A stretch of DNA of 64,000 bases from Alphaproteobacteria bacterium (lineage in GTDB: Bacteria > Pseudomonadota > Alphaproteobacteria > Bin95), in the NCBI GenBank assembly GCA_040263875.1, contig JBDQJI010000005.1:6496-70495 (forward strand), written 5' to 3'. Below, in pieces: positions 13,810 to 50,614 of the stretch. The translations under genes and the position numbers were made by a program. The notes below the pieces were generated by a model. It was not told where the DNA came from, did not search any database, and saw nothing but the letters and a program-made list of their open reading frames with translations. Position 1 is the first letter of the stretch, and each line of letters opens with the position of its first letter.

Positions 13810-13819
13810 CAGCCAAGCT

Positions 13820-16395: not shown

Positions 16396-16429
16396 AGCCG
16401 CCTGCGCTTCAACGCTGCTTTAGAAAGAC

Positions 16430-24322: not shown

Positions 24323-24323
24323 C

Positions 24324-25079: not shown

Positions 25080-25104
25080 GGCCTCAGCCCTCATCATTGG
25101 GGCA

Positions 25105-27689: not shown

Positions 27690-27736
27690 CGTCTATGGCC
27701 TCCGGGCCGTATCGCACATCCAGAACGCGGCAGGTG

Positions 27737-27844
27737 CCCCCTCACCCTGTTCCCTCGCCCTCCTTTAAAGGAGAGAGGACCCTCACTTAGGCATTCTCTT
27801 TTCGAACTCTCGCCCCATAGGAAGAGAGGGCTGGGAGAGAGGGG
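27737..27844. repeat. CT/GA-rich intergenic element between coxD-like and coxE-like genes, containing a 14-nt perfect palindrome CTCCTTTAAAGGAG (27760..27773) and a second related CTCGCCC ... GAGAGAGG unit
   Basis: Two units of similar composition, ccctcgccctcctttaaaggagagagg and ctctcgccccataggaagagagggctgggagagagggg, lie within a 175-nt spacer inside a probable operon. Confidence 0.5.
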
Positions 27845-27864
27845 AACCTTGCAGAAAGGCGCAA

Positions 27865-30239: not shown

Positions 30240-31442
30240 TTATTCAGCAGCGTCCGGTGCTGCAAAGCGGGCAGCGACTGCCGTGAAGCGTTCCACGATA
30301 AAGTCGATCTGATCTGGCGTGTGCGCGGCGGACACAGAGCAACGCAGGAGCGATGTGCTGTTCGGTGTGCCCGGTGGGATCGCCAAGTTCACGTATACGC
30401 CTTCATCCAGTAGCGCATTCCAGAATGCTGCCGCTTTGCCCGGGTCGCCCATATCAACGCCAATCACTGGGCTGGGGCTGGCGCAAAGCTTGAAGCCCGC
30501 GTCCGCAAGCCCTGCATGCAGGCGCTTAGCATTGGACCATATCTGATCCCGGAGCTCTGGCTGCGCTTTGATTTCGCGCAATGCGGCGCGTGTCGCCTCA
30601 ATACTGGCAGCCGAGGATGAGGCCGTGAACATGTAAGCCCTGGCCGCCACCCGAAGCAGATCAAACTGCGGCAAGCTCGAGGCTGCAAAACCGCCAATGC
30701 CAGCAAGGCTCTTAGAGAATGTACCGACCAGGATATCGCAATCCGCGAGCACGCCCTCAGCTTCCGCAAGGCCAAGGCCGTTCGGACCAAACACGCCGAA
30801 AGAATGCGCCTCATCAACGACCAAATAGGCGTTATGGCGTTTCTTCACCTCAATGAATTCCGCCAAGGGCGCCACATCACCGAACATGCTGTAGAGGCCT
30901 TCGGTGATCACCATTTTGTTCGATGCGTCTCGGTCCAACCGCGATAAACGGCGATCAAGCGATGCAGGATCATTGTGCGCAAACCGCACGATTTGCGCAC
31001 CGGAGAGCTTACAGGCGTCATAGATACTGGCGTGGCAATCAGCATCGATCAGCACGACGTCCTGCGGCCCAGCAAGACCGGCTACAACCGCGAGGTTGGC
31101 CTGATAGCCGGTCGTGAAGACAATCGCTTGATCTAGGCCGAAATGGGCCGCTAATTCTTCTTCAAGAAGTTTGTGCGGGCCGTAGGTGCCATTGGCAATA
31201 CGGGAGCCCGTTGTGCCAGCACCAAATTCAGCCGCCCCCTTCTGTGCGGCTGCAATAACATTCGGATCGAATGTCAGCCCGAGGTAATTATTGGTGCCAG
31301 CCAGCACAACTTCCGAATTGCCGATCATGCCAACCGTCGGCGAGATGATACGGTCAAACGCGACCTTGAACGGGTCCGCACCGATTGCGCGCAGCCCAGC
31401 ATAGGCTTCAGCAATCGGCTTAAACTTGTCGAATAGATCCAT
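30240..31442 (-). CDS. spt: Serine palmitoyltransferase-like alpha-oxoamine synthase
   Basis: PLP-dependent AOS-family protein of about 400 aa. Sits immediately upstream of an ACP gene in the Caulobacter-type sphingolipid arrangement. Confidence 0.8.
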   Translation of the reverse strand: MDLFDKFKPIAEAYAGLRAIGADPFKVAFDRIISPTVGMIGNSEVVLAGTNNYLGLTFDPNVIAAAQKGAAEFGAGTTGSRIANGTYGPHKLLEEELAAHFGLDQAIVFTTGYQANLAVVAGLAGPQDVVLIDADCHASIYDACKLSGAQIVRFAHNDPASLDRRLSRLDRDASNKMVITEGLYSMFGDVAPLAEFIEVKKRHNAYLVVDEAHSFGVFGPNGLGLAEAEGVLADCDILVGTFSKSLAGIGGFAASSLPQFDLLRVAARAYMFTASSSAASIEATRAALREIKAQPELRDQIWSNAKRLHAGLADAGFKLCASPSPVIGVDMGDPGKAAAFWNALLDEGVYVNLAIPPGTPNSTSLLRCSVSAAHTPDQIDFIVERFTAVAARFAAPDAAE

Positions 31443-31456
31443 GCCCGGTCCTCGGC

Positions 31457-31726
31457 TCAGTTATCGGCGCGGGCGCGGGCGACCACATCAGCGAAGTCGC
31501 CGACTGTCGTCACTTCGCTCAACAGATTGATCGGTACTGAAATATCGTAGGTGTCTTCCACCTCAAGCACGAAATCCATCACGGCAACGGAATCAACGTT
31601 CAGGTCTGCGTTGAAATCTGTGGCGCGGGTGATCGTGATGCCGCCCTTATTCAGCTTGTCCAGCATCCCGGCCAATTCGCCCATCAACTCGTCATGCGCA
31701 GCAGTGCCGACCATGTTCACTCTCAC
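31457..31726 (-). CDS. Acyl carrier protein (sphingolipid-pathway ACP)
   Basis: ACP-like DSVAVMDF phosphopantetheine-attachment Ser. The exact start is uncertain between MRVN, MVGT and MGEL. Confidence 0.7.
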   Translation of the reverse strand: MRVNMVGTAAHDELMGELAGMLDKLNKGGITITRATDFNADLNVDSVAVMDFVLEVEDTYDISVPINLLSEVTTVGDFADVVARARADN

Positions 31727-31760
31727 TTAGAACAGCGGCGCGCCCGATGCGGCGCGCGGA

Positions 31761-32741
31761 TTATCCAGCCTCTCTATACCATGCCAGCGTTCGCCTGAAA
31801 CCCGCCTCTAACGAAACTTCCGCTCGCCATTGTGGAAGGCTTCGCGCAGGATCGGCGATCCAGTCACCCGCGCGCATTTCTGAGACCTTGCCAGGCGTTA
31901 GAAATGGCGGCTGAAAACCGAGGGTACTGCTCATCCGGGCACCAATACCGCCAAATCCACCGATTGCGCTGATCAATGGCATCGGCAATCGTATTGGGCG
32001 GAGGCGTCGGCCTGCCGCGGCCTCGCCAGCTGCACGGATTTCACGCCAAGTATATCCACCAGCGCCATCATCTATCTCGTACACAGGATGGGCAGGTGAA
32101 GCAGCACCGAGCGCAGCCAGCGTCGCGGACGCAGCGTCGTCCACATAGATCATGGCGAGGCGGGCATCGATTGGCCCTGGCATGGGCGCAAAGCCCTTCG
32201 CCATGGCTTGAAACATCGGCTTCGTCGCTGCATCTGCTGGGCCGTAGATTGCCGGCGGGCGGATAATGGCGGACGGATGGCTTGCCAGAATGCGACGCAC
32301 ACCAGCCTCCGCAACTGCCTTACTCGCCGCATAGGGCGATACGCTCGGCCTACTCGCTGCAAGGGATGAGACAAGCACGAAAGGCGGCGCACCCGCAGCC
32401 AACACAGCCCGTGCAACGGCGTTAGCGCCAAGGGCATTAGCCGCCATGAAAGCGGCAGGGGACTGCGCGCGGACCAATCCGGCGTTGTGAATCACAGCGT
32501 CTGCGCCATCAACAAGCCGCTCGAGCGCCCCGCCATCGGCTAAATCGCCGGGCACAACCTCCCAAATACCATCCAAAACAACATCCGAGCGGCGCTGCAA
32601 TATCCGCACACGCCAACCGGCAGCACCTGCAAGTGCCGCAACGCGGCCGCCTAGAAAGCCCGTGGCACCGGTCAGCGCAAGCACCCGGCCAGCGCCATCC
32701 GCAATAGGAGAGGATATGTGAGGTTCAGAACGCGCCGACAT
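31761..32741 (-). CDS. NAD-dependent epimerase/dehydratase family reductase (bacterial ceramide reductase CerR-like)
   Basis: N-terminal Rossmann LTGATGFLGGRV. Its position between acp and the acyl-ACP synthetase matches the Caulobacter ceramide locus. Confidence 0.7.
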   Translation of the reverse strand: MSARSEPHISSPIADGAGRVLALTGATGFLGGRVAALAGAAGWRVRILQRRSDVVLDGIWEVVPGDLADGGALERLVDGADAVIHNAGLVRAQSPAAFMAANALGANAVARAVLAAGAPPFVLVSSLAASRPSVSPYAASKAVAEAGVRRILASHPSAIIRPPAIYGPADAATKPMFQAMAKGFAPMPGPIDARLAMIYVDDAASATLAALGAASPAHPVYEIDDGAGGYTWREIRAAGEAAAGRRLRPIRLPMPLISAIGGFGGIGARMSSTLGFQPPFLTPGKVSEMRAGDWIADPARSLPQWRAEVSLEAGFRRTLAWYREAG

Positions 32742-32753
32742 GCGCGCCAGCGA

Positions 32754-34580
32754 TTAGTCGCCGCCGGCGGCGGTCAGGGTCGAGTAAGCTGCATGCCGCA
32801 AGCCCATATCGGCCTCGGTGTCACCATAGCGGCCAGCCAGATAGTTCTCACGAGCGGCAGTGCGGCTGAGCTTACCAGAAGAGGTCATTGGCAGGCTACG
32901 CGGCTGCGCCAGAACCACCGTACAATCCACACCAGCCACCAAACGGGCGGCGGCGCGCACTTCACGCATCAGCTGACTGCGTGCTTCAGTTTCAGTCGCG
33001 CGGCACTGCACGACAACAACGACCCCCTCAGCACCGTCCTCATTCTCAACGGAGAACGCTGCAGCATCGCGACGCCGAATACCGCCCAGGCCTTCAACAG
33101 CCCATTCGATATCTTGCGGCCAGATATTCCGGCCATTGCAGATGATCAAGTCTTTGCCACGACCAGTGATCACCAGCTTGCCAGCAACCGTGTACCCCAT
33201 GTCACCGGTATCAAGCCAACCGGTTTTCGACAGCACATTCTTCGTAGCAGCGGGGTCGCCAAAGTAGCCATTCATGACGCTTGGGCCCCAGATATAAACC
33301 CGGCCAATCAAGCGGTCTGCCAAATCATTCCCGTGATCATCACGGATAGCCAGCTTATGGCCAGGCATCGGGCCGCCGCAGAACGCAAACGGGCGCACAG
33401 CGTTCTCACCGTCATCATCATTGCCAGGCTTGGCTTGCCCTGTCAGCGAGTAGTCGCGCTTCACGATTGCGTCGACTTCAATGCCCGTATTCAGCGGAGC
33501 AAACGATACTGCGAGCGTCGATTCCGCCAGACCATAGCTGGCGACAAAGGCGCGGCGGTCAAACTTGCTGGGTGCAAACGTTTCGGAGAAGCGCTCAAGA
33601 ATATCGGCGCGCACCATCTCACCACCGATGCCCGCGACCCGCCATTTAGACAGATCATAGTCATCAGCGCGGGCGCGACCAGCGCGGCGCAGGCAGATGT
33701 CGTAGCCAAAGGTTGGGCTGAAAGAGATCGTGCCGCCATTTTCAGAAAGCACTTTCAACCACGTTAGTGGGCGGCGTGCGAAGTCTGGCGTCGCAACGTA
33801 ATCGACTGAAAGCTGACCGAACACAGGCGTGAGGCAGCAACCAACAAGGCCCATGTCATGATAAAGCGGCAGCCAGGACATGCAGCGATCGCCGGGTCCA
33901 GCTTTAACACCATGGTTCACGATGCCCTGCACATTCGCTGCAACTGAACGATGCGACGCCGCTACCCCGTGCGGGAACCGCGTGCTGCCTGATGAGTATT
34001 GAATGTAGCAAATATCGTCTTCGGTGATTTTGGGCAGCCCGTTTTTACCGGCTGGCAGACGATAGAACTCGTCTGGCGTGCCAACCATCGGGGTCTGCAG
34101 GCCTTCTGCAGCTTCGCGCAGGTAGCCAATCAGGTCTTCAGATGCGACGGCGGCAGCAGCGCGCGCGCTCTGCATCATCCGTTTGAGCTGGCCGATGTAC
34201 GCATCCTTACCGCCCAGATGCATAGGGAACGGCAATGGCACTGGAATCAGGCCAGCATATTGGCAGCCATAGAAGAATGTCAGGAAGTCTGGCGTGGTTT
34301 CCGCGATAACAGCGAGGCGGTCGCCTTTTTTAAGGCCAGCGCCGCAAAGGCGGCCTGCCAGGTCGACTGCGCGCTCGCGCAAATCCGCATAGCTCAGCGA
34401 TTCAGAGAAGTCGCCGCGCCCGTCAAAGAAATTGAAGCCAGTTTCGCCACCCGCCGCGTAATCCAGGGCTTTAACGACTGTGCGGAAGCCTTCTGAGCGG
34501 AATGGGAGGCCGGAGTTAACCGTCGGCAGTGTTTTTTGCATGGCCGTTAAGGTGCGTCCCGGTTCAGGTGCGATATTCAT
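32754..34580 (-). CDS. Acyl-CoA/acyl-ACP synthetase (AMP-binding, FAAL-like) of the sphingolipid cluster
   Basis: AMP-binding motifs YSSGSTRFPHG and GYGLAEST. The start was chosen at the first ATG (MNIAPEPG), because the longer ORF begins at TTG. Confidence 0.8.
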   Translation of the reverse strand: MNIAPEPGRTLTAMQKTLPTVNSGLPFRSEGFRTVVKALDYAAGGETGFNFFDGRGDFSESLSYADLRERAVDLAGRLCGAGLKKGDRLAVIAETTPDFLTFFYGCQYAGLIPVPLPFPMHLGGKDAYIGQLKRMMQSARAAAAVASEDLIGYLREAAEGLQTPMVGTPDEFYRLPAGKNGLPKITEDDICYIQYSSGSTRFPHGVAASHRSVAANVQGIVNHGVKAGPGDRCMSWLPLYHDMGLVGCCLTPVFGQLSVDYVATPDFARRPLTWLKVLSENGGTISFSPTFGYDICLRRAGRARADDYDLSKWRVAGIGGEMVRADILERFSETFAPSKFDRRAFVASYGLAESTLAVSFAPLNTGIEVDAIVKRDYSLTGQAKPGNDDDGENAVRPFAFCGGPMPGHKLAIRDDHGNDLADRLIGRVYIWGPSVMNGYFGDPAATKNVLSKTGWLDTGDMGYTVAGKLVITGRGKDLIICNGRNIWPQDIEWAVEGLGGIRRRDAAAFSVENEDGAEGVVVVVQCRATETEARSQLMREVRAAARLVAGVDCTVVLAQPRSLPMTSSGKLSRTAARENYLAGRYGDTEADMGLRHAAYSTLTAAGGD

Positions 34581-34677
34581 TGAATCGCCCAACAAGTTTG
34601 TGACAAAACAGATTCTGGCGCAAAAAGTCAACGCCTGAGCCCATCATCTCCAATGGATTAATATTCAACGACCATCG

Positions 34678-35369: not shown

Positions 35370-36290
35370 ATGCACGTTTACCTGCCCATCGCGGAAATTT
35401 CGGTCAATGTATTCCTGCTGCTGGGAATGGGTGCGGGTGTCGGTGTCCTCTCCGGTTTATTTGGGGTCGGCGGCGGCTTTCTAATGACGCCACTGCTGAT
35501 ATTCATCGGCGTCCCTCCCGCTGTCGCCGTTGGATCTGAAGCAAACCAGCTCGTTGCTACCTCTATCACTGGCGTGCTGGCCCACTGGCGACGAAAAAGC
35601 GTCGATTTCAAAATGGGATCTGTGCTGCTGGTGGGCGGTGTGATCGGCTCTACCGGCGGCGTGTTCCTATTTAAGGCATTGCAAAAGCTTGGCCAGATCG
35701 ATCTGGTGATATCGCTTTGCTATGTCGTCTTCCTGGGCATTATCGGCTTGCTGATGTTCTCAGAATCCATGCGCTCCATGCTGAAGCAGAAGCGCGGTGT
35801 CGCCAGGCGCGGCAAGCTACATAAGCATACTTGGGTGCACGGCCTGCCATTCAAGATGCGATTCCATAAGTCCAGACTATACGTCTCAGCATTGCTGCCG
35901 CTGTTTGTCGGCATGCTGGTTGGCGTTCTGGCGGCAATCATGGGTGTCGGCGGCGGCTTTATTATGGTGCCGGCCATGATCTATTTGATCGGCATGCCAA
36001 CGTCCGTCGTTGCGGGCACATCGCTTTTCCAAATTTTGTTCGTCGTAGCCAACGTTACGTTCTTGCAGGCGTGGCAGAACCAAACTGTTGATATCTTGCT
36101 GGCATTGCTGCTGCTGGTTGGCTCTGTGCTTGGCGTGCAGGTCGGCATCCGGCTTGGTGCGAAACTCCCAAGCGAACAGTTCCGCGTGCTACTGGCCGTG
36201 CTCGTGTTGCTAACATGCGGCAAGCTGGCGTTTGATCTGATCGCGACCCCGGGCAATCCATTCTCCCTAGCCTTGGGGGGCGGACATTGA
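35370..36290 (+). CDS. Sulfite exporter TauE/SafE family membrane protein
   Basis: Duplicated LSGLFGVGGGFLMTPLL and GVGGGFIMVPAMIYL motifs in an 8-TM protein. Confidence 0.85.
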   Translation: MHVYLPIAEISVNVFLLLGMGAGVGVLSGLFGVGGGFLMTPLLIFIGVPPAVAVGSEANQLVATSITGVLAHWRRKSVDFKMGSVLLVGGVIGSTGGVFLFKALQKLGQIDLVISLCYVVFLGIIGLLMFSESMRSMLKQKRGVARRGKLHKHTWVHGLPFKMRFHKSRLYVSALLPLFVGMLVGVLAAIMGVGGGFIMVPAMIYLIGMPTSVVAGTSLFQILFVVANVTFLQAWQNQTVDILLALLLLVGSVLGVQVGIRLGAKLPSEQFRVLLAVLVLLTCGKLAFDLIATPGNPFSLALGGGH

Positions 36291-37030
36291 GAGCCTTCAG
36301 CTTCATTCTCGCCTTAGTCGCCGCCGCAACGCTCACGCGCGCCGCGATAGCACAGATCGCCGTTGACCTCTCCAAGCACCAGATTGAGATCACATCCGGG
36401 TTTGACGGGGCAGAACTTCTACTATTTGGCTATGACACCAGGGGCGGTGAAGTTGTGGTCATCGTTCGTGGCCCACCAGAGACCATATCTGTCCGCGAAA
36501 AAGAACGCACAGCTGGAATATGGATCAACCAGGATGAAGTGACGTTCAAGAACGCCCCGAGCTTCTATTTCGTGGCGACAACGGAAGGCCTGCGCGGTGA
36601 CGGCAAGCTTGAGACAATCTTGGAGAGTCTTGGCGTTGGCCCCCGCTATCTTGGCATGGCACCGGTTGATAGCAGTCTCAGCCCAGAGCGAGTTAATCAG
36701 TTCAGAGAGGCACTGATCACCCTCCGCGAACGCGACCAGCTCTATGCTAAGGAACCTGGCCACGTGCTCATGCGTGAGGACCGGCTATTCCGAACCCAGG
36801 TGCCCTTCCCCTCCTCAACACCCATCGGCGACTACACTGTTACAGTATATGAGGTGATTGATGGCTGGCCCGTTTTAGGTACTGAAACGCCCCTACGCGT
36901 TCGAAAAGCGGGCTTTGGCGCATTCGTTTACAACACGGCCCACGACCATCCAGCGCTCTATGGGATAGTTGCTATTCTGATCGCCCTCGTTGCAGGATGG
37001 TTTGGCGGATGGGCGTTCCGAAAATCATGA
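36287..37030 (+). CDS. TIGR02186-like (alph_Pro_TM) putative membrane protein, partner of TauE/SafE
   Basis: Signal peptide, periplasmic body, C-terminal TM (IVAILIALVAGWFGGWAF). TTG start overlaps the TauE stop (TTGA). Confidence 0.6.
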   Translation: MRAFSFILALVAAATLTRAAIAQIAVDLSKHQIEITSGFDGAELLLFGYDTRGGEVVVIVRGPPETISVREKERTAGIWINQDEVTFKNAPSFYFVATTEGLRGDGKLETILESLGVGPRYLGMAPVDSSLSPERVNQFREALITLRERDQLYAKEPGHVLMREDRLFRTQVPFPSSTPIGDYTVTVYEVIDGWPVLGTETPLRVRKAGFGAFVYNTAHDHPALYGIVAILIALVAGWFGGWAFRKS

Positions 37031-37081: not shown

Positions 37082-37579
37082 ATGACTAAGGAGCCGATGT
37101 CGGACCCAGTGCGCAAGAATCGCGTACTGCTTTGCGTGCTTGATGGCAGTGAGGAGCTGTCCATCGCATTGCACTATGCATCCATGCGCTCACTGCGCAC
37201 CGGCGCACGTGTTGGGCTGCTTTATGTGCTTGAGCAAGCGGACGAGTTTGGCCATTGGGCTGGCGTCGCTGCACTCATGCGGGAAGAAGCGCGTGCAGAG
37301 GCTGAACGACTACTTCTGCAAGCGGCAGAGGTCGTCAAACGGCTGAGCGGTCAGACGCCGATCCTTTATATTAGCGAGGGCGAGCCGTCTCAGGCTGTCA
37401 TTGACCTTATCAATGAAGACCGGGACATCGCCTTCTTGATTTTGGCCGCCAACACCGAAGGCCAAGGCCCTGGTCCATTGGTCACCCAGATTACCAGCCG
37501 CCATATCGGCAGCCTGCATATTCCCGTCGTTGTTGTTCCAGGGAATATGTCAGATGATGAAATTCGGTCATTTGCTTGA
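37082..37579 (+). CDS. Universal stress protein (UspA family)
   Basis: USP fold pattern VLLCVLDGSE ... LYVLE ... IPVVVVPG. Confidence 0.75.
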   Translation: MTKEPMSDPVRKNRVLLCVLDGSEELSIALHYASMRSLRTGARVGLLYVLEQADEFGHWAGVAALMREEARAEAERLLLQAAEVVKRLSGQTPILYISEGEPSQAVIDLINEDRDIAFLILAANTEGQGPGPLVTQITSRHIGSLHIPVVVVPGNMSDDEIRSFA

Positions 37580-37626
37580 AGCCATGGCCCACCACTTATG
37601 CCCGGCCCGCTCTACCGTGAGGACTT

Positions 37627-40506
37627 ATGAACGCACCGCTTGAGCCTATCGACTACAACCGCCCGACCGGGGACGAAATCAAAACCACCACCTGTTACAT
37701 GTGCGCCTGTCGCTGTGGGATTCGCGTGCATCTGAAAGATGGCCGGGTCCGATATATTGACGGCAATCCTGATCACCCAGTGAATGGCGGCGTGCTTTGC
37801 GGCAAGGGTGCGGCTGGGATCATGCAGCACTATTCCCCAGCCCGATTGACCAAACCGCTCCGCCGCAAGGGTGCCCGTGGCGCTGGCGAGTTTGAAGAGA
37901 TTGAGTGGAATGAAGCGCTGACAATGGCGACCTCCTGGCTCTCTGAAGTCCGCAACACAGACCCGCGCCGCTTGGCGTTCTTCACCGGACGCGACCAATC
38001 ACAATCCTTAACTGGCTTTTGGGCGACGCAATTCGGCACGCCCAACCATGCCGCACATGGTGGCTTCTGTTCGGTCAATATGGCCGCCGGGGGTATATAT
38101 TCCATCGGCGGATCGTTCTGGGAATTTGGCGAGCCTGACTGGGAGCATGCACGCATGCTGCTGATGTTCGGCGTTGCGGAAGATCACGATTCCAACCCGA
38201 TCAAAATTGGCCTTGGCAAGCTGAAATCTCGTGGTGCCAAAGTTGTTTCTGTGAACCCGGTTCGCACGGGCTATTCGGCCATTGCAGACGAATGGGTCGG
38301 GATTCGCCCCGGCACGGACGGCGCATTTGTATCAGCGCTTATCCATGAGCTTCTCCGCCAAGACCGAATTGATCTGGAATTCCTGGCGCGCACAACGGAC
38401 GCTTCCTGGCTGATTAACCAGAACCCGGGCGCTGCCGATCATGGGCTCGTTATTAAAGATGCTGATGGCGCGCCACTTGGCTGGGACGGGACTGCTGATG
38501 CGCCGACACCTGCGCGCACACCCGGTGCCAACCTTTCCCTCATCGGTGAGCGCACACTGCCCGATGGTCGAAAAGCCAAGACCGTATTCCAGCTTCTGGC
38601 GGAGCGCTTTCTTGACGGCGCGAACAACCCGGATGCGGTGGCTGCTATTACTGATGTGCCTGCGGAAACCATCCGCAATCTTGCCAATGATCTAGCAGCG
38701 GCTGCCCTTGATGACCCGATGGAAATCCAGCAACCCTGGACCGACTGGACCGGCAAGCGCCATGAAACCATGGTCGCCCGCCCAGTCGCCATCCATGCCA
38801 TGCGCGGAATCTCAGCACACTCCAACGGCTTCGACACATGCCGCTTGATCCATGTGCTGCAGATGCTGCTGGGCGCAATCGATGCGCCCGGTTCTTTCCG
38901 CTACAAACCACCATTCCCGAAACCTGTGCCACCTGGTCCAAAGCCTGCCGGCAAAGCTGACCAGATAGGTCCCGGCCGCCCCATGGCTGGCCCACCGCTA
39001 GGATTTGTCGCTGGCCCAGAGGACCTGCTGGTAGACCCGGACGGAACGCCCCGGCGCATCGACCACGCCTATAGCTGGGAAGCGCCTGTCGCCGCCCACG
39101 GGTTGATGCATATGGTGATCGAAAACGCCGCAAAGCAGGACCCGAACCCAATCGACGTGCTGTTCATGTATATGGCCAATATGGGCTGGAATTCGTCCAT
39201 GAGCGTTGAGAACGCGCTTAAAGGCTTGACGGCGAAGGACGAAGAAACCGGCGAATATAAGATCAAGCACGTTATTTATTCGGACGCGTTCTGGTCTGAA
39301 ACTGTGGCCTATGCAGACCTAATTTTCCCAGACACCACCTATCTAGAACGGTGGGACGCGATCTCATTGCTCGACCGACCAATTTCGGACGCAGATGGCC
39401 CAGCGGACGCTATCCGCCAGCCGATCTTTGAACCGGACCGTGACGTTCGCCCGTTCCAAGAAGTCGTTATTGACCTTGGCCATCGCTTGGGCCTGCCCGC
39501 ATTCACCAATGAAGACGGCACCGCCAAATTCCCTGGTGGCTACAAAGACTACCTCGTCAACCACGAGCGCACGCCCGGCGTGGGCCCGCTTGCAGGCTGG
39601 CGCGGTGAGGACGGTGACAAGGGCGGTATTGGCGCAAAGAACCCCGATCAGCTCGACAAATATATTGAAAATGGCTGCTTCTGGAAGCACGAACTTGAGC
39701 CGGAACAGCGCTATTTCAAACATTCCAATAAGTCTTATCTGGAATGGTCGGCGAGCATGGGCTTCATCCCGAACGCTGACCCCATCGTGATGCATTTGTA
39801 CTCGGAACCGTTGCAGAAGTTCCGCCTCGCAGCTGAAGGCCACGGTGACGTTCAACCGCCGACAGATGCTGCCCGGCAGCGCGTGCTGAAGAACTTTGAT
39901 CCCATCGCCAGCTGGCGTCCGCCGCTAAACGGCTTGGAGGATGCGGATAACGCATATCCCCTGCATGCGATCACGCAGCGCCCGATGGCGATGTATCATT
40001 CCTGGGGTTCTCAGAACGCTTGGCTCCGCCAAATCCATACGGCCAACCGCCTGTTCATGGCGCGGGAGCTGGTGGAGGAAATGGGGCTGAAGGACGATTC
40101 CTGGGTTTATGTCACCAGCCCGAACGGCAAGATCAAAGCTCAGATCAAGGCAATGGAAGGTGTGAACCCTCGCACCGTCTGGACCTGGAACGCCATTGGC
40201 AAGCGCAAAGGTGCCTGGGGCTTGGACAAAGACGCGCCGGAAGCAACCAAAGGCTTCCTGCTGAATCACCTGATTTCCGAACTGCTGCCCGACGGCCAAG
40301 GCGGCCATTGGCCAAACGCTGATCCAGTGACTGGCCAAGCGGCATGGTACGACCTCCGCGTCAAAATTGAGCCCGCCCCCGCGGATACCGCACAAGTGAG
40401 CGAGCCCGTGATACCTGCGCTGCCCAATAACCCTGGCGGCAAGCCTAACCCAAGCCGCCTAGGCTTCGGCGCGGCCTTCCGTGGCCGCAAGGAGGCCCGC
40501 TCATGA
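37627..40506 (+). CDS. Molybdopterin (bis-MGD) oxidoreductase catalytic subunit, DmsA-like, without a twin-arginine signal
   Basis: 959 aa. N-terminal FS0-cluster Cys motif TTCYMCACRCG ... LCGKG. No RRxFLK motif in the first 40 aa. A GAGGA Shine-Dalgarno 6 nt upstream fixes the start. Confidence 0.88.
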   Translation: MNAPLEPIDYNRPTGDEIKTTTCYMCACRCGIRVHLKDGRVRYIDGNPDHPVNGGVLCGKGAAGIMQHYSPARLTKPLRRKGARGAGEFEEIEWNEALTMATSWLSEVRNTDPRRLAFFTGRDQSQSLTGFWATQFGTPNHAAHGGFCSVNMAAGGIYSIGGSFWEFGEPDWEHARMLLMFGVAEDHDSNPIKIGLGKLKSRGAKVVSVNPVRTGYSAIADEWVGIRPGTDGAFVSALIHELLRQDRIDLEFLARTTDASWLINQNPGAADHGLVIKDADGAPLGWDGTADAPTPARTPGANLSLIGERTLPDGRKAKTVFQLLAERFLDGANNPDAVAAITDVPAETIRNLANDLAAAALDDPMEIQQPWTDWTGKRHETMVARPVAIHAMRGISAHSNGFDTCRLIHVLQMLLGAIDAPGSFRYKPPFPKPVPPGPKPAGKADQIGPGRPMAGPPLGFVAGPEDLLVDPDGTPRRIDHAYSWEAPVAAHGLMHMVIENAAKQDPNPIDVLFMYMANMGWNSSMSVENALKGLTAKDEETGEYKIKHVIYSDAFWSETVAYADLIFPDTTYLERWDAISLLDRPISDADGPADAIRQPIFEPDRDVRPFQEVVIDLGHRLGLPAFTNEDGTAKFPGGYKDYLVNHERTPGVGPLAGWRGEDGDKGGIGAKNPDQLDKYIENGCFWKHELEPEQRYFKHSNKSYLEWSASMGFIPNADPIVMHLYSEPLQKFRLAAEGHGDVQPPTDAARQRVLKNFDPIASWRPPLNGLEDADNAYPLHAITQRPMAMYHSWGSQNAWLRQIHTANRLFMARELVEEMGLKDDSWVYVTSPNGKIKAQIKAMEGVNPRTVWTWNAIGKRKGAWGLDKDAPEATKGFLLNHLISELLPDGQGGHWPNADPVTGQAAWYDLRVKIEPAPADTAQVSEPVIPALPNNPGGKPNPSRLGFGAAFRGRKEARS

Positions 40507-41228
40507 CCAGTTTACCAGCGACCGCGCCCGTAAAAAAATTGGGACTGGTCATCGACCTGGACACCTGCGTCGGTTGCCATGCCTGCGCCGTTAATTGCAA
40601 GGAATGGAACACGGGCGGCGAAATGGCCCCATTGACGGATATGGACCCTTATGGCGCAGAGCCAGAGGGCGTGTGGTTCAACCGCGTACACGGCTATGAG
40701 GCTGGCGATGGTGCCAATGGGCGCACCGTCCATTTCCCGCGCTCCTGCCTTCATTGCGAGACGCCTGCATGCGTCACGGTTTGTCCAACGGGGGCTTCCT
40801 ATAAGCGCGAAGAAGACGGCATTGTGCTGGTAGACGAAGACAAGTGCATTGGCTGCAAGCTCTGCTCCTGGGCCTGCCCTTACGGTGCGCGTGAGTTTGA
40901 TGAAACCGTCGGCGTCATGAAAAAGTGCACGCTTTGCGTGGACCGCATCTACAACGAAACCATTCCGGAAGCAGAACGTGTTCCGGCATGTGTTTCAACG
41001 TGCCCGGCCTCTGCCAGGCATTTCGGAGATTTGGGCGACCCGAATTCAGATGTGTCCAAGCTGGTTGCTGAACGCGGCGGATATGATCTGGCCCCGGAGT
41101 TTGACTACAAGCCGACCAACAAATACCTGCCGCCCCGCGAACGGATGCCCAGTGCGCCAGCTGCAGCCGAAGCAGCAGGCGAGCCGCAGGGCCTGCTGAA
41201 GTGGGTCGACCGGATGCTGTCAATCTGA
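40503..41228 (+). CDS. 4Fe-4S ferredoxin-type electron-transfer subunit (DmsB-like)
   Basis: Four Cys clusters: CVGCHACAVNC, CLHCETPACVTVCP, CIGCKLCSWACP and CTLC ... CVSTCP. Confidence 0.88.
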   Translation: MTSLPATAPVKKLGLVIDLDTCVGCHACAVNCKEWNTGGEMAPLTDMDPYGAEPEGVWFNRVHGYEAGDGANGRTVHFPRSCLHCETPACVTVCPTGASYKREEDGIVLVDEDKCIGCKLCSWACPYGAREFDETVGVMKKCTLCVDRIYNETIPEAERVPACVSTCPASARHFGDLGDPNSDVSKLVAERGGYDLAPEFDYKPTNKYLPPRERMPSAPAAAEAAGEPQGLLKWVDRMLSI

Positions 41229-41283
41229 TCATGACGATGCTTGTTCTGATCTCTAATCTCTCTGGCCGCTGGAGCCGCCGACC

Positions 41284-42219
41284 GTGAACCCTGCACCTTC
41301 AGTTATCTTTTTCACGACCCTGTCGGGGCTCGGCTACGGGCTGGCATTCTGGCTTGCCATTGCGCGGGCGTTTGGCGCTGTTCCAGCGGATACGCCCTGG
41401 TTTGGCGCGATCAGCCTTGGTGCCGCATTGGCACTGTTATCAGCCGGCCTGTTGTCGTCAACCGCCCACCTTGGCCATCCAGAACGGGCATGGCGCGCAT
41501 TCAGCCAATGGCGGACCTCCTGGCTATCTCGCGAAGGCGTGGCCGCTGTTGTGACATTCGTTCCGCTTGGGCTGCTGTGGCTTGCATGGATGCTTGGTGC
41601 GACTGGTGGCATTTGGGCTCTTGTTGCGCTTGTCGGTGCAGCCCTGGCGCTCATCACCGTGTACTGCACCGGTATGATCTATCAGTCCTTAAAGCCGATC
41701 CAGGCTTGGGCGACAGGATGGACGACGCCGATCTATCTTCTATTTGCCTTAATGACAGGTGCCCATGCTGTGGCGGCACTGGCTGCATGGTTCGGCTATG
41801 GTGCCTCCTGGCAAGCAGGTGCGGCGCTGATCCTGACCGTCGTTCTAGCGATCTCCAAGTTCATGTATTGGCGGTCCGTCGATACCGCGACGCCCTTCTC
41901 GACGCCGGAAAGTGCGACGGGCCTTGGTCGCTTTGGCAGGGTCCGCCAACTCGAAGCACCCCACGTGACAGAGAATTACATCACGCGGGAAATGGGCTTC
42001 AAAGTTGCCCGTAAGCATGCGGCAAAACTGCGGATGATTGTCTATGCCATTGGCTTTGGCATCCCCGCTCTCGTTGCAATGCTGATGCTGATCTCCGGGC
42101 CTTCTGCGTTGTTGGCGACGATTGGTATCCTCGCGGCTATGGTCGGTGCCATCGCAGAACGCTGGCTCTTCTTCGCTGAAGCCAAGCATGCTGTCATGAA
42201 TTTCTACGGTGAGCGTTGA
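41284..42219 (+). CDS. DmsC-family membrane anchor subunit
   Basis: 8-TM protein containing the DmsC-like segment HLGHPERAWRAFSQWRTSWLSRE. Confidence 0.78.
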   Translation: MNPAPSVIFFTTLSGLGYGLAFWLAIARAFGAVPADTPWFGAISLGAALALLSAGLLSSTAHLGHPERAWRAFSQWRTSWLSREGVAAVVTFVPLGLLWLAWMLGATGGIWALVALVGAALALITVYCTGMIYQSLKPIQAWATGWTTPIYLLFALMTGAHAVAALAAWFGYGASWQAGAALILTVVLAISKFMYWRSVDTATPFSTPESATGLGRFGRVRQLEAPHVTENYITREMGFKVARKHAAKLRMIVYAIGFGIPALVAMLMLISGPSALLATIGILAAMVGAIAERWLFFAEAKHAVMNFYGER

Positions 42220-42422: not shown

Positions 42423-42980
42423 ATGTTTATCCAAACCGAAGCGACGCCGAATCCGGCGACGTTGAAATTCCTGCCGGGTCTGACCGTGCTGGAAACTGGC
42501 ACCGCTGACTTCCGCAACCCGGAAGACGCAGCAGAGCGCTCGCCATTGGCGGACAGCCTGTTTGCCGTGGAAGGCGTCACCGCCGTATTCCTTGGCAGTG
42601 ACTTCATTTCAGTCTCCAAGGCTGACCTCGCCGATTGGGCCGTGATGAAACCCGCCGTGCTTGGCGCGATCATGGAACATTTCACCCGCGATCTGCCAGT
42701 CATGGCCGCTGGCGCGCAGATGGCGGAAGCTGTTTCTGCTGATGGCGATCCGGTGATTGAGCAAATCCAGGAATTGCTGGACACCCGTGTCCGCCCTGCC
42801 GTCGCTGGCGATGGTGGCGACATTGTATTCCGGGGCTTTGAGGACGGGATCGTATACCTGTCCATGCAAGGTGCCTGTGCCGGGTGCCCAAGCTCTACCG
42901 CGACGTTGAAGATGGGCATTGAGAACATGCTCCGTCATTACATCCCGGAAGTGCAGGAAGTGCGCCCTGCGCCCTTCTAA
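42423..42980 (+). CDS. Nfu/NifU-like Fe-S cluster scaffold/carrier (Nfu_N plus NifU C-terminal domain)
   Basis: N-terminal MFIQTEATPNPATLKF (Nfu_N) and a C-terminal CAGCPSS CxxC motif. Confidence 0.85.
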   Translation: MFIQTEATPNPATLKFLPGLTVLETGTADFRNPEDAAERSPLADSLFAVEGVTAVFLGSDFISVSKADLADWAVMKPAVLGAIMEHFTRDLPVMAAGAQMAEAVSADGDPVIEQIQELLDTRVRPAVAGDGGDIVFRGFEDGIVYLSMQGACAGCPSSTATLKMGIENMLRHYIPEVQEVRPAPF

Positions 42981-44387: not shown

Positions 44388-45590
44388 TCAGGCTGCTGCG
44401 TTCCTGCGGTCACCTGTGCCACGACGGTCCGAAGCGCGCACAGATGGCGGCAAGATCATCGAAGCGACAAATCCACCAGTAGACGCGTTCGCGATCGCCA
44501 ATCGGCCATTGTGCCGTTCCGCCGCCAAACGCGCGATTGGCAGGCCAAGGCCTAGGCCGTTATGCGCCCGGTCCAGGCCAGTTTCAGTCTGGCTGAAGGG
44601 TCGCATCAGCTTCTCCAAGTCTCCGACATCGGCACCTTTGCCTTGATCGCAAACCGTGATCACGACTTGGTCGCCCATTTCCTCAGCCGAAACCTCAACG
44701 GTGCCGCCGAACGGGGAGAATTTCACTGCGTTATCGACAAGCGCCGAGATTCCGGCGTTCAAGACTTCGATATCGCACCAGAGCCGAAGTGGTGCAGCTA
44801 GTGGACGAACATTAATCGCGACCGCCTGTGGCTCCGCAGCTTTCCGGAAACGCTTCGCGGCTTGTTCAAGCAACACGTCAGCATTGGCTGCGCTTGCCTT
44901 AAGCGGTGCCAGACCTGCTTCGAGGCGGGAGAGCAGAAGCATTCGATTCACTTGGGACAACAAGTCATCGCCACATTGGCGAATGTCCTTTGCGTAATCC
45001 AAATATCCTGGGTTCCCGATTGGGCCAAGGCCTTGTCCCAACATCACGTCTGCGAAGCCAATAACGCCGTTGAGCGGCGTCCGCAGCTCATGACAGAGCG
45101 TTGCGAAAAGGCGGCTTTTCAAAACGCTTGCTTCTTCGACTTGCGCTTTGGCATGACGCAGTTCGCTCTCCATCGCCGCAGACCGCAGCAAGTATCGAGC
45201 CTGATGGCCCAATAAGGCCCATTGCACCGGCTTCGCAATGAACGTTGTCGCACCGACCTCGAACGCCGTTTGCACGGAGTCTTCATCTTCAAGCCCCGTG
45301 ACGAGCGCCACGGGTATCATTGCCATATCCGGGTCACTATTGCGCCGGATCAGCGTGCAGACCTCAAATCCAGTTTGGCCTGGCATCATGACGTCCAAAA
45401 TCGCCATGTCCGGCCTTTCAGCTAAGAACAGACGCACGGCAGCGTCGCCATCTTCCGCTTCAATAACCTTGTATCCCTCAGCAGCCAGCGTCTCGCTGGT
45501 CAGCATAAGCTGCACAGGGTCATCATCTGCGATCAGGACCGTCGCCGGCATATTGGCGTCGTTTTGAGTATTCGGATCGGTCATCCTCAA
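44388..45590 (-). CDS. Response-regulator receiver fused to histidine kinase (REC-HisKA-HATPase)
   Basis: N-terminal REC (VLIADDDPVQ ... DVMMPGQTGFEV ... AKP), H-box CHELRTPLNGVIGF, and the HATPase G-box GLGLGLPIARL. Confidence 0.85.
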   Translation of the reverse strand: MRMTDPNTQNDANMPATVLIADDDPVQLMLTSETLAAEGYKVIEAEDGDAAVRLFLAERPDMAILDVMMPGQTGFEVCTLIRRNSDPDMAMIPVALVTGLEDEDSVQTAFEVGATTFIAKPVQWALLGHQARYLLRSAAMESELRHAKAQVEEASVLKSRLFATLCHELRTPLNGVIGFADVMLGQGLGPIGNPGYLDYAKDIRQCGDDLLSQVNRMLLLSRLEAGLAPLKASAANADVLLEQAAKRFRKAAEPQAVAINVRPLAAPLRLWCDIEVLNAGISALVDNAVKFSPFGGTVEVSAEEMGDQVVITVCDQGKGADVGDLEKLMRPFSQTETGLDRAHNGLGLGLPIARLAAERHNGRLAIANASTGGFVASMILPPSVRASDRRGTGDRRNAAA

Positions 45591-48211
45591 CCTCGCGCTT
45601 TCAGCGTCTTCAAGGCCATTGTCAGGTCTTCGAAAGCCGTATTCACCTCATCAGCAAGCCGCTGCACACCGTCACCATCGCCAGTCTTGGCCATTGCCTC
45701 GATGTCCGCCAGGATGGTCGGCAATGTACGGGAGCCAATGTTGCCACTGGCGGATTTCAACGCGTGGGCATTGCGTCCAGCTGCTGTCAGATCGCCTACT
45801 TTCGCAGCCGCAGAAATATTTTCTGCTAGCGTCGGGGAGCTTTTCAGGAACGTATCGATCACCCGTTGCACCATCTTGTCACCATCACGTCCAACCTTGC
45901 GGAGGGATTGGATCACGTCATAGTCCAGCGCTTCCGGGAAGCCATCATCCGCGATGGCTGCAACGTGCGGCATTGCAGCTTGCTTTGCTTTGATCTCTGC
46001 GAGTGCTGGCGGTTCAACCACATCCTTCTTCACCCCAGCCCCGCCAAGTGTCGCCCGGACAGCGGCAGTCCGGTCAAGCTCTGGGCTAGGCGTAATTTTG
46101 TTTAGACGAATTGCATGCGGCTTCAGCATTTGGATCAGAGCTGCATTGGTGACCGGCTTCGCCAGGAAATCCGTCATTCCGGCTTCAAAACAGGCGTCGC
46201 GGTCCTCAGCAAATGCATTCGCAGTAACGGCGATGATGGGTGTGCGGCGCGCGCCGTCTTCCATTGCCCGGATCTGCCTAGTAGCTTCATAGCCATCCAT
46301 GATCGGCATTTGGCAATCCATCAGGATCAGATCAAAGGCTTGCTCAGCCGCCGCATCTGCAGCGGCCAGGCCATTTTCTGCAACCGTTACCGTACAACCA
46401 AGATCTTCCAGCAAGCCTTCCATCACGAGTACGTTTACCGGGTTATCTTCCGCCATCAGAATATTCAGATTGAGCGGCTCTAGCACGACTTCTGCTGCTT
46501 CAGAGCCACTGGCCAAGGCCTGCAACATGCCGCCAAGGTCCACATCCCCCAAGGGGCGCATCATCGCCCAATCGACGACATCGTTAAATTCATCAGCGAC
46601 CGGATCACTGCCAAAGTCTGTTAGAATGCAAAGCTCGGGCCGGGCGTCGCCAGATATTTTCAGCAACCGCGTGCGTAGTCGTTTCAAGCTCTGCTCATCA
46701 TCACCTGACGTAATGATGACGTCAGGAATCCGCTCACCAAGGCCAAGCGCGCCTTCAAGCATCGCTGCGGCCTGGGCCGCACCTTGCGCTTCTGCAGACT
46801 CAACCCCGCGCCGGGCAAGGCGCCCAAGCAGGGATTGCTGTTCATCTGGCGTTGCTTCGGCGGCCAGAACGAACAAACCGCTCTGAAGCACGGGTGGCTC
46901 CGCGACGACAATTGTTGCCGGGACAGACAACCGGAATGTCGATCCGCCCCGCTCAGACCGCACAAGCGTTACATCGCCGCCCATGCGCCGGGCCAAGTCA
47001 CGAGCAATCGCCAATCCAAGACCAGCACCGCCGAACTTCCGGCTCATAGAGCCATCACCCTGTTCGAAGCGTTCAAAGATGCGGTCTCGCGCGGCATCCG
47101 GCACACCAGGACCCGAATCATTAATATCGATATCGAGCCGCCCGTCGCTTTCCCCGCTACCCTCAATCCACTCAGCGGAAATCGCCACACTGCCGGTCGT
47201 CGTAAATTTGACGGCATTGCCAACCAAATTGACCACGACCTGGCGCACCCGGGCGGAATCACCGACAAGGCAATGCGGCAGATCAGGGTCCGGCATGGAG
47301 ACGATATGCAACCCCTTGCCGCTGGCGGATGGAGCAAAAGCGATTGCGATATCGTCCAGCATCACGGTCGGGTCATATTCGGTCTTTGCGACCGCGACTT
47401 CGCCTGATTCAATCTTTGCCAGATCGAGAATGCCGTTTAGAAGGTCCAGCAATGTCGTGCCAGATGCGCGGATTGTTGTGGCGTAATTCTGCTGGCGCGG
47501 CGTCAGGCCTGTATTCAGCATCAGGTCCATAGCACCAAGGATGCCATTCAGCGGCGTTCTGATCTCATGGCTCATCTTGGCCAGGAAGTCGGATTTCGCG
47601 TGATTGGCGCGCTCAGCTTCACGGCGGACGCGCTCAGCTTCTGCCAGCGAAACCTTCATGTTGGCGTAGGCGTCTTTGATCTCTGCCATCTGGTGCTCGA
47701 CATCATGGTCGAGCTTGCGGCGGCGCGCTTCCAACTCAATGTCCCGGTCCCTAAGGTCCGCAGACAAACGGTTAATCGCCGAGGCGACGGCGTTAGCGGC
47801 GACTGTTTGATAACGGCCAAGCTGGGGGTAATCCGACTGGCTGGCAGCCTCAAGGTCGGTCCGGAGCTTCAAAAATAGCTTGAGAGATTTGATCGCAGAT
47901 CGCCGGCCCCGGATCATCGCAATCGGTAACAGAAGCAACGCGGTAATCGCCGCAGATAATCCGGCAAGCCGCAATGTGTCAGCGACGGGCGGCATATGCT
48001 CACCCATCAAATAGGGCGCAGCCTGCAAGGTCACAAAGACCGCCAGGGCCAAAGACCCCAAGAGGGCAACGACCGTGAAGAGAGCACCAAAAAGTGCCCC
48101 ACCGCGATGAGGCGTGTTGCTTAGCGGTGCAGAGGGGCGTGCACGTTGCGGCGACAAGCGGACACTCGGGCCACCTGTCGGGTCTTCAATAGCGGATACA
48201 GTGTCAGGCAT
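45587..48211 (-). CDS. Hybrid sensor histidine kinase with two receiver domains and a C-terminal Hpt domain
   Basis: N-terminal TMs, H-box SHEIRTPLNGILG, HATPase (DSGPGVP, GAGLGLAIARDL), REC regions (LMAEDNPVNV ... LMDCQMPIMDGYEA) and Hpt (AHALKSASGNIG). Overlaps the downstream REC-HK by 4 nt. Confidence 0.85.
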   Translation of the reverse strand: MPDTVSAIEDPTGGPSVRLSPQRARPSAPLSNTPHRGGALFGALFTVVALLGSLALAVFVTLQAAPYLMGEHMPPVADTLRLAGLSAAITALLLLPIAMIRGRRSAIKSLKLFLKLRTDLEAASQSDYPQLGRYQTVAANAVASAINRLSADLRDRDIELEARRRKLDHDVEHQMAEIKDAYANMKVSLAEAERVRREAERANHAKSDFLAKMSHEIRTPLNGILGAMDLMLNTGLTPRQQNYATTIRASGTTLLDLLNGILDLAKIESGEVAVAKTEYDPTVMLDDIAIAFAPSASGKGLHIVSMPDPDLPHCLVGDSARVRQVVVNLVGNAVKFTTTGSVAISAEWIEGSGESDGRLDIDINDSGPGVPDAARDRIFERFEQGDGSMSRKFGGAGLGLAIARDLARRMGGDVTLVRSERGGSTFRLSVPATIVVAEPPVLQSGLFVLAAEATPDEQQSLLGRLARRGVESAEAQGAAQAAAMLEGALGLGERIPDVIITSGDDEQSLKRLRTRLLKISGDARPELCILTDFGSDPVADEFNDVVDWAMMRPLGDVDLGGMLQALASGSEAAEVVLEPLNLNILMAEDNPVNVLVMEGLLEDLGCTVTVAENGLAAADAAAEQAFDLILMDCQMPIMDGYEATRQIRAMEDGARRTPIIAVTANAFAEDRDACFEAGMTDFLAKPVTNAALIQMLKPHAIRLNKITPSPELDRTAAVRATLGGAGVKKDVVEPPALAEIKAKQAAMPHVAAIADDGFPEALDYDVIQSLRKVGRDGDKMVQRVIDTFLKSSPTLAENISAAAKVGDLTAAGRNAHALKSASGNIGSRTLPTILADIEAMAKTGDGDGVQRLADEVNTAFEDLTMALKTLKARG

Positions 48212-49393: not shown

Positions 49394-50614
49394 ATGGTCA
49401 GACTTTCCGATATGACGGCGGATGATGCAGCGCATCTCCTGTCTAAGAATTGCCCCCGTTTTCCGGGTGAGCCATTCGTGGCCGGACCACCGTTGAAAAA
49501 CCGCCGCGTCGCGATCGTCACCACTGCCGGGTTACATCGAACGAGCGATACGGCGTTTGACCTGACCGATATTGGTTACCGGGTTATTCCTGGAAATGTC
49601 CAAGCGGCAGATCTGGCGATGAGCCACGCGTCAGTCAATTTCGACCGATCTGGCTTTCAGGATGACGTGAACGTGGTCTTCCCCATTGACCGGTTGCGCG
49701 AAATGAAGGCCGCGCGCGAAATTGGCTCCATGGCAGATTTCCACTACTCCGTCATGGGTGCGGGGTGGGAGCCCCATGAAATTGAGCCGACAGCACTGGC
49801 AATGGCAGCCCTCCTGCACCGGGACAATGTCGACGCCGCCCTACTCGTCCCCGTTTGACCAAACTGCACGCGCGCCGTGAGCGCGCTTGGGCATTTCCTC
49901 GAATCCGCCGGCATCGCGACAGCAGGTGTCAGCCTAGTGCGCGAAAATACGGAGCTAATGCAGCCGCCACGCGCGCTCTGGGTGCCGTTCGAGCTGGGCC
50001 GCCCCTTCGGCGCGCCCCATGCGCCGGACTTTCAGATGCGCGTGCTAAAGTCCGCATTGGCCCTGTTGGAGCGCACCGACGGGCCGGTCATTCTGGAGGA
50101 CTTTCCGGATGACGCACCTGACAGCGATAGTGCCGGATCACTCGTCTGCCCCGTCAATTTCCCGAAACCGCCCAATCCAAGCGAAAGCGACCTGCTGCGC
50201 GCAGTGCTAGCAGAAACGGCCAGCTTGGCACCCTGGCACGCGCTATTCATGGAAACCCATGGGCGGCGGAGCATTGCGACAGTCAGTGGCCTCGATATCG
50301 ACGCTGCTGCCCGCTATGCCGCAGCATTTTTGGAACCGGGAACAAATCCCGAGCCGCCTGACGGTAAGGACCAAGCCTCAACCCTCCGCTTTGCGATTGA
50401 GGACTTGCGCAATTGGCGGCTGGAGGCAATTACGGCGCAGCCAGGCCCCAAACCATCGTCAAAAGCCCTGGCCGATTGGTTCTGGGGGGAAACGGCGACG
50501 GGCACATTGGCGTTGGCGCTCCATCCCGTGCTGTTAGAAAGCGCCAACCCGCGCCTTCGCCAAGTCGGTGCAGGCCAGCTTGTCCCGCGGGCGCAACAAC
50601 ACAGGCTCGGCTGA
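49394..50614 (+). CDS. Candidate selenoprotein: one reading frame interrupted by a single in-frame TGA (49856..49858). Tentatively a GrdB/PrdB-like reductase B-component family member.
   Basis: The ORF track splits this into 49394..49858 and 49877..50614. Both halves are in the same frame (both starts are congruent to 2 mod 3) and are separated only by TGA plus 6 sense codons. The read-through sequence gives VPV-U-PNC (a U-x-x-C motif). A GAGG Shine-Dalgarno lies 8 nt upstream of 49394. The proposed GTG start of the second half lies inside the downstream hairpin loop and has no Shine-Dalgarno. Confidence 0.5.
49868..49888 (+). other. GC-rich hairpin (6-bp GCGCGC stem, loop CGUGA, extendable with one mismatch), a candidate bacterial SECIS-like element
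   Basis: The core stem g49870-c49875 / g49881-c49886 begins 11 nt after the A of UGA(49856..49858). The loop contains G-U. Confidence 0.4.

Follow-up and report, generated by a model that had tools for sequence, protein, structure and literature searches.

SoeABC and Related Molybdoenzymes

SoeABC is a heterotrimeric, membrane-bound, sulfite-oxidising enzyme of the cytoplasm (PMC8076601, PMC6397845, PMC6335251). An operon that very probably encodes such an enzyme, a cytoplasm-facing sulfite:quinone oxidoreductase, is described here from an uncultured alphaproteobacterium (GTDB lineage Bin95). It lies within a 64,000-nucleotide stretch of contig JBDQJI010000005.1 (assembly GCA_040263875.1, positions 6,496 to 70,495 of the forward strand), referred to below as the window, and its genes are called soeA, soeB, and soeC. 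Positions are those of the window unless a locus of a relative is named.

SoeABC was first proposed in Ruegeria pomeroyi (PMC6335251; PMC6397845), in which soeC, soeB, and soeA (SPO3557-3559) are annotated as cytosolic and adjoin pta and tauR (PMC4334477). In Allochromatium vinosum it has been shown to be a major cytoplasmic sulfite-oxidising enzyme (Dahl et al. 2013, as cited in PMC6335251 and PMC6397845), and that of Aquifex aeolicus is a quinone-reducing sulfite dehydrogenase (Boughanemi et al. 2020, as cited in PMC8076601). In Ruegeria isolates oxidising thiosulfate, the soeABC transcripts are up together with those of the rDsr genes, and in metagenome surveys soeABC is regularly grouped with the degradation of organosulfonates. 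The architecture is thus already known and is widespread, soeC having been counted in 236 species, 100 of them Alphaproteobacteria (PMC8076601). According to a review of NrfD-like subunits, SoeAB is thought to reside on the membrane's N-side, and SoeC is hence expected to be inverted in it, an orientation that the same review presents as a prediction so far (PMC8076601).

The Probable soeABC Operon and Its Products

The three genes are co-directional (coordinates in Table 1), and soeA and soeB overlap by the sequence ATGA, through which soeB is translationally coupled to soeA. SoeA comprises the Pfam domains Molybdop_Fe4S4 (PF04879), Molybdopterin (PF00384), and Molydop_binding (PF01568), which are those of the Mo/W-bisPGD superfamily, here of a catalytic subunit with a molybdenum bis-pyranopterin guanine dinucleotide (Mo-bisPGD) centre. 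Its N-terminus is MNAPLEPIDYNRPTGDEIKTTTCYMCACRCG, and the ligands of the N-terminal [4Fe-4S] cluster are C23-x2-C26-x3-C30...C58, with an additional C28; the first cysteine is residue 23, not residue 22 as given in an earlier note on this DNA. SoeB has 16 cysteines arranged as four ferredoxin-type groups (Pfam Fer4_11) and matches the NCBIfam models DsrO, DmsB, and TtrB, each below its cut-off. SoeC matches Pfam DmsC (PF04976) over residues 6-297 with an E value of 3.3e-18 and has eight hydrophobic segments. The operon thus encodes what that note had described, a three-subunit molybdoenzyme with a 959-residue A subunit, a four-cluster ferredoxin, and a DmsC-family anchor with eight transmembrane helices. 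A scan for promoters and terminators around the operon gave no promoter-like sites, and terminator-like sites were near chance level.

Translation Start and Absence of an Export Signal

The GAGGA Shine-Dalgarno sequence ends 3 nucleotides 5' of the soeA ATG and overlaps a TGA that lies in frame two codons upstream of it, so that a longer N-terminus of SoeA, and with it a hidden leader, is impossible. The start, previously regarded as fixed by the Shine-Dalgarno sequence, is fixed by this overlap, and an upstream extension with a twin-arginine motif, which had been considered as an objection, is excluded for the window gene. No pair of arginines was found by a regular expression in the first 60 residues of SoeA, SoeB, or SoeC, while SRRGLV, the signal for twin-arginine translocation (Tat) in E. 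coli DmsA, was found as a positive control. Both the twin-arginine motif and a hydrophobic h-region are missing from SoeA and from SoeB, and the operon contains no third partner gene with a Tat signal.

The same is true of the relatives. A Tat-like motif is present in none of 120 close homologues of SoeA, nor does one precede the cysteine cluster in any of 340 full-length members of the clade, the outgroup proteins P0233 and P0309 being detected by the same test. The lack of a Tat signal therefore characterises the whole clade and is not peculiar to the window gene. A stop-to-stop scan upstream of soeB in high-GC relatives gave double-arginine matches, but these were spurious, originating from the overlapping soeA frame, and the scan was dropped; the soeB start in relatives was taken as the conserved MTSLP...KLGLVIDLD. 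Among 45 open reading frames (ORFs) of the window scanned against Pfam, none has a chaperone domain of the TorD/DmsD type, and no such chaperone is expected, because SoeA is not exported.

Family Placement of SoeA

None of the NCBIfam models of other named molybdoenzymes is reached by SoeA, all scores being far below the cut-offs. The best is PhsA NF012032, with which SoeA scores 200.6 bits (cut-off 694); the DmsA/YnfE model TIGR02166 gives 127.8 bits against 777.7, and NF011566 75 against 1600. A database search with SoeA returned thousands of full-length homologues, of which the best 120 are 64-98% identical to it. Several of the homologues are named "sulfite dehydrogenase (quinone) subunit SoeA" by the Joint Genome Institute (JGI), while the NCBI names for the same proteins are "molybdopterin oxidoreductase family protein" or "formate dehydrogenase". 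Two further searches, seeded from more distant members, namely the SoeA of locus L078 from a metagenome-assembled genome (MAG) labelled as gammaproteobacterial and the 55%-identical representative P0223, returned many more SoeA-named proteins, and the matches listed were all of the alpha-type or the Burkholderiales-type.

Identity of the window SoeA to six SoeA-named proteins of the alpha-type is 62-67%, and to twelve of the beta-type 49-56%; these matches are full-length and score 906-1293 bits. The next relatives beyond the SoeA-named groups are at most 39% identical, and Tat-bearing proteins are found only there. With E. coli DmsA as the root, a neighbour-joining tree groups the window protein within the SoeA-named alpha clade; the sister of that clade is the beta-type SoeA clade, and the Tat-bearing proteins branch outside both. 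The earlier note had left the substrate open and had named, as an outcome that would change its view, a phylogeny assigning the A subunit to a well-characterised cytoplasmic clade whose function is known; the protein nests among proteins annotated as SoeA, the catalytic subunit of a sulfite:quinone oxidoreductase, and such a placement is provided by this SoeA-annotated clade.

The Tat-bearing outgroups came from a search of 50%-identity representatives, mostly fragments, and the clusters of distant representatives carry such names as Desulfitobacteriaceae and Saccharolobus. The distant relative P0233 (1183 residues) has a classical Tat signal, MSIRRRHFLQGAG, and the Saccharolobus proteins P0309/P0381 (1452 residues) have clear ones as well, in one such protein LTRRDFLKITG. 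All of them are 33-36% identical to SoeA and much longer, and among exported proteins they represent the sister groups closest to the Tat-less clade.

The closest solved chain to SoeA is that of Thermus thermophilus PsrA (PDB 2VPW; E value 5e-35, 124 bits); the PDB copy searched contained no SoeABC structure. In the alignment of the two proteins Cys148 of SoeA falls on PsrA Cys173, which is reported to be the molybdenum ligand in the PsrABC structure, and Cys148 is the probable ligand in SoeA. The motif AHGGFCSVN around it is kept in 336 of the 340 clade members. The motifs at the molybdenum ligand and at the N-terminal cluster, FS0, are identical between the alpha- and beta-types.

The SoeC Anchor

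[quoted passage not shown] The respective means for the 69 homologues are 16.6 and 1.2, with the bias in the same direction in every one of them, and the ratios for two beta-type SoeC proteins from SoeA-annotated loci are 20:1 and 19:1. E. coli DmsC shows the opposite bias (2:7). Under the positive-inside rule the charge bias therefore predicts a cytoplasmic location for both termini of SoeC and for its loops 2-3, 4-5, and 6-7, opposite to the arrangement in DmsC and in agreement with the SoeC orientation predicted in PMC8076601. The location of the A and B subunits on the cytoplasmic face of a DmsC-type anchor, suggested before, is thus upheld as a prediction by the impossibility of a leader and the 17:1 bias of the anchor. 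A basic insertion of about 27 residues is present between helices 6 and 7 of SoeC and missing from DmsC.

Residues S6, S59, H62, S79, S82, E84, and T129 of SoeC are invariant or nearly so in the 69 sequences. The quinone-site residues reported for A. aeolicus SoeC (aq_1231) are Ser6, His65, Ser82, Ser85, Glu87, and Thr132; matched by spacing only, without the Aquifex sequence, the first corresponds to S6 at the same position and the others to H62, S79, S82, E84, and T129 at a constant offset of 3. In an alignment with DmsC, the window residues S59, H62, and E84 fall on DmsC S62, H65, and E87.

Taken by its parts, the complex resembles SoeABC in the A-B-C gene order, in the Mo-bisPGD protein with an N-terminal Fe-S motif, in the four-cluster ferredoxin, in the haem-less anchor of the NrfD/DmsC type with eight transmembrane helices and a predicted inverted orientation, in the lack of signal peptides, and in the presence of the quinone-site residues; nothing structural differs. 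The view that a cytoplasm-facing complex on such an anchor would be unusual has to be abandoned, as the same architecture defines SoeABC. E. coli DmsABC is likewise a three-subunit complex iron-sulfur molybdoenzyme with an anchor of the Pfam DmsC family and the Ser, His, and Glu of the quinone site in aligned positions. However, DmsA carries the Tat signal SRRGLV, whereas SoeA has none and scores far below the DmsA model, and the molybdenum ligand in DmsA is a serine.

Gene Order and Neighbours in Relatives

Gene order and neighbours were counted in the best 80 of at least 598 loci obtained by scanning genome contigs with an alignment of SoeA. Neighbour clusters were included only if Pfam, NCBIfam, or tblastn supported them; greedy ORF calls gave antisense artefacts. 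soeB is located directly 3' of soeA in 77 of the 80 loci, and soeC then follows in 70; in many of the exceptions the locus is truncated where the contig ends. The genes found most often nearby code for a MocR/TauR-type regulator (12 loci), alanine dehydrogenase (7), an omega-aminotransferase (4), and Xsc (4). In locus L042 the order is xsc, ald, a mocR-type regulator gene, an aminotransferase gene, soeA, soeB, and soeC, with both Xsc and Ald above the NCBIfam equivalog cut-offs. Xsc, sulfoacetaldehyde acetyltransferase, releases sulfite in the cytoplasm, and this sulfite would therefore meet the Tat-less SoeA there. In their link with taurine and xsc genes the relatives, though not the window locus itself, resemble the R. 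pomeroyi system.

A gene of the SulP family (Pfam Sulfate_transp) is located directly after soeC in L078 (11620-13149), which comes from the MAG labelled as gammaproteobacterial, and in L085 (14624-15889) and L086 (18727-19998), both of a clade whose named members are Burkholderiales. This position fits the formation of sulfate inside the cell and suggests a dedicated exit route for the sulfate made by a cytoplasmic enzyme. The SoeA-annotated clade is thus linked genomically to both sulfite-producing and sulfate-transport genes.

Some of the loci depart from the common order. In L086 three unrelated genes separate soeA from soeB-soeC (13250-16722); one codes for a VTT-domain protein, and the other two have no Pfam match. 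In L003 and L007, from Hyphomicrobiaceae MAGs, the soeA homologues are 64-65% identical to that of the window and are not followed by soeB and soeC, and in L003 a 1060-residue ORF lies downstream of soeA on the opposite strand; the operon may be split in these genomes, or soeA may be an orphan.

Proposed Reaction and Alternative Explanations

Sulfite as the substrate is an assignment that we infer from homology and genomic context, and the direction of electron flow, the molybdenum ligand, and the origin of the organism's sulfite are putative in the same way. The Mo-bisPGD centre of SoeA, in which Cys148 is the probable ligand, would oxidise cytoplasmic sulfite to sulfate. The two electrons would pass through the [4Fe-4S] cluster FS0 of SoeA and then the four [4Fe-4S] clusters of SoeB to a quinone bound near H62 and E84 of SoeC on the membrane's N-side, and the quinol would enter the respiratory chain. 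As a result sulfite would be detoxified, its electrons would be delivered to the respiratory quinone pool, and the sulfate would then have to leave the cell.

Several points weigh against this assignment. NCBIfam has no SoeA model, and no curated cut-off is therefore passed. Orthology to the proteins of A. vinosum (Alvin_2489-2491), A. aeolicus, and R. pomeroyi (SPO3557-3559) is indirect, its basis being JGI's KEGG-style naming, a table in one review, and similarity of context; none of these three organisms is represented among the 80 best loci. The N-in/C-in orientation of SoeC, inverted relative to DmsC, is a prediction from charge bias. A sulfite-producing pathway (xsc, cuyA, dsr, hdr, or sox) was not found among the 45 ORFs scanned in the window. 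Finally, alphaproteobacterial SoeABC is represented in the literature examined by a conference poster, gene context, and transcripts, and not by a purified enzyme.

It is unlikely, in view of the evidence below, that the same cytoplasm-facing architecture serves another substrate or the opposite direction in the alpha subclade, for example as a quinol-dependent reductase of a cytoplasmic sulfur compound or oxo-anion with Psr/Phs-like chemistry. The nearest structure and the best curated hidden Markov model are indeed those of polysulfide and thiosulfate reductases, and PsrABC/PhsABC (T. thermophilus, PDB 2VPW-2VPZ) shares with the window complex the aligned cysteine ligand, the four-cluster ferredoxin, and the eight-helix anchor. 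However, the similarity to PsrA/PhsA is mainly in the first 260 residues and low in score (124 bits, and 200 against 694), whereas that to the SoeA-annotated proteins extends over the full length with 906-1293 bits. Moreover, PsrA and PhsA are periplasm-facing proteins exported by Tat, while SoeA lacks the signal, falls below the PhsA cut-off, is about 200 residues longer, and is associated with an anchor of opposite predicted orientation; the Psr/Phs reaction is reductive and consumes quinol. The moderate identity of the alpha-type to the beta-type SoeA-annotated proteins (49-56%) also speaks for a different substrate, but the motifs at the molybdenum ligand and FS0 are the same in both types. 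Similarly, the scanned ORFs of the window include no sulfite-producing genes, and biochemical characterisation of an alpha-type enzyme was not found in the literature examined, yet other alpha-type loci adjoin xsc and taurine genes, whose products liberate cytoplasmic sulfite, and the soeABC transcripts of Ruegeria rise with thiosulfate oxidation.

DmsB-type subunits, which have no export signal themselves, cross the membrane together with DmsA, and a periplasmic enzyme of the Dms/Psr kind could be imagined here through an unrecognised signal, hitch-hiking on another Tat substrate, or a mis-called start. Although DmsC-family anchors normally carry periplasmic AB subunits (PMC8076601), such an enzyme is very improbable and export of SoeA and SoeB is essentially excluded by the in-frame stop upstream of soeA, the lack of a twin-arginine motif and h-region in both proteins and likewise in the 340 clade members, the lack of a Tat-bearing third partner, and the reversed charge bias of the anchor.

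Surroundings of the Operon

The probable sulfite:quinone oxidoreductase genes of the window lie in a block with the order DUF1491, TauE/SafE-family exporter, Alph_Pro_TM (TIGR02186), universal stress protein (USP), soeABC, Nfu, and glucosaminidase (Table 1). In this respect the locus differs from the soeABC loci of the literature, in which dsr/hdr or pta-tauR are the neighbours instead of the TauE-family, Alph_Pro_TM, USP, and Nfu genes.

Table 1. Positions of the soeABC genes, the soeA start region, and adjacent genes in the window
Feature	Position	Strand	Description
TauE/SafE-family anion exporter	35370-36290	+	Pfam TauE, E value 2.5e-50
Alph_Pro_TM/TIGR02186, alphaproteobacterial partner of TauE/SafE	36287-37030	+	Pfam, E value 5e-68
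Universal stress protein (USP) gene	37082-37579	+	Pfam Usp; 47 nt upstream of soeA
In-frame TGA (37618-37620) overlapping GAGGA Shine-Dalgarno (37619-37623)	37618-37623	+	From the sequence and its upstream in-frame translation
soeA, Mo-bisPGD catalytic subunit	37627-40506	+	959 residues, 105 kDa; ATG start
soeB, electron-transfer subunit with four [4Fe-4S] clusters	40503-41228	+	241 residues, 26 kDa; no signal peptide
soeC, quinone-interacting membrane anchor of the DmsC/NrfD family	41284-42219	+	311 residues; GTG start; eight transmembrane helices
Nfu gene	42423-42980		Flanks the operon downstream

The entire block recurs in an 83%-identical relative (L082/L083), in which the USP stop codon overlaps the soeA start, and the USP gene may be co-transcribed with soeABC in this lineage. 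Among the 80 loci, USP is found upstream of soeA in three (L012, L070, and L071), and the pair of TauE and Alph_Pro_TM genes in ten, in addition to L082/L083. Nfu accompanies soeABC in none of the 80 and is present only in the closest relative, so it looks like a mere neighbour. The lack of a chaperone gene and the flanking USP and Nfu genes, pointed out in the earlier note, are all as stated there; in relatives the Nfu flank is not kept, and the USP flank is limited to the nearest lineage.

Among the ORFs scanned, the TauE/SafE-family exporter is the only candidate near the operon for a link to sulfite production or sulfate export, and its role in the export of sulfate or sulfite is a conjecture. 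That the TauE/SafE, Alph_Pro_TM, and USP genes form with SoeABC a single stress-regulated module for the handling of sulfite, in which the TauE-family protein would export sulfate or excess sulfite, or else that the alpha-type enzymes use a substrate other than sulfite, is a speculative reading of low probability; if the module were real, it would give a role to the uncharacterised Alph_Pro_TM/TIGR02186 family and to the USP.

Just downstream of the soe block two adjacent genes for hybrid sensor kinases are located on the minus strand (44388-48211), one with the domain order receiver-HisKA-HATPase and the other with HisKA-HATPase-receiver-Hpt; no link of such kinases to soeABC was seen in the other loci. 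On the same strand upstream, at 30240-34631, lies a gene set that has the appearance of one for bacterial sphingolipids. It comprises genes for a serine palmitoyltransferase, which scores 599 bits with NF047599 (cut-off 500), a fatty acyl-AMP ligase, which scores 788 with NF006624 (cut-off 600), and an NAD-dependent epimerase-like reductase. A short ORF for an acyl carrier protein occupies the gap 31442-31761, and the same set adjoins the soe block in L082.

Other Features of the Window

A second, unrelated molybdoenzyme cluster is present at 20594-28788. It codes for CoxM-like FAD and CoxL-like Mo-hydroxylase subunits, which are below the cut-offs for carbon monoxide dehydrogenase and glyceraldehyde dehydrogenase, and, on the opposite strand, for a CoxE-type VWA protein and a CoxD-like AAA ATPase.

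At 49394-50614 on the plus strand there is a frame of 406 codons broken only by an in-frame TGA (49856-49858), in the context LLVPV-TGA-PNCTRAV. Reading the TGA as selenocysteine gives a UxxC motif, and a GCGCGC/GCGCGC hairpin begins 11 nucleotides past it. The product read through gives a weak match to PrdB TIGR04483 that extends across the TGA (102 bits against a cut-off of 300), and also weak matches to selenoprotein B family models. The frame is a candidate gene for a selenoprotein of the GrdB/PrdB superfamily, here in an alphaproteobacterium.

Significance

Beyond correct annotation the identification of soeABC in the window has little significance. A "Tat-less DmsABC" is easily rediscovered from the sequence of such loci, because the NCBI-style labels of the proteins are generic and NCBIfam has no SoeA model. 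For the organism, the identity of the complex as SoeABC would mean that this uncultured alphaproteobacterium is able to oxidise intracellular sulfite and to transfer its electrons to quinone, the sulfite probably coming from the breakdown of organosulfonates or from sulfur oxidation.

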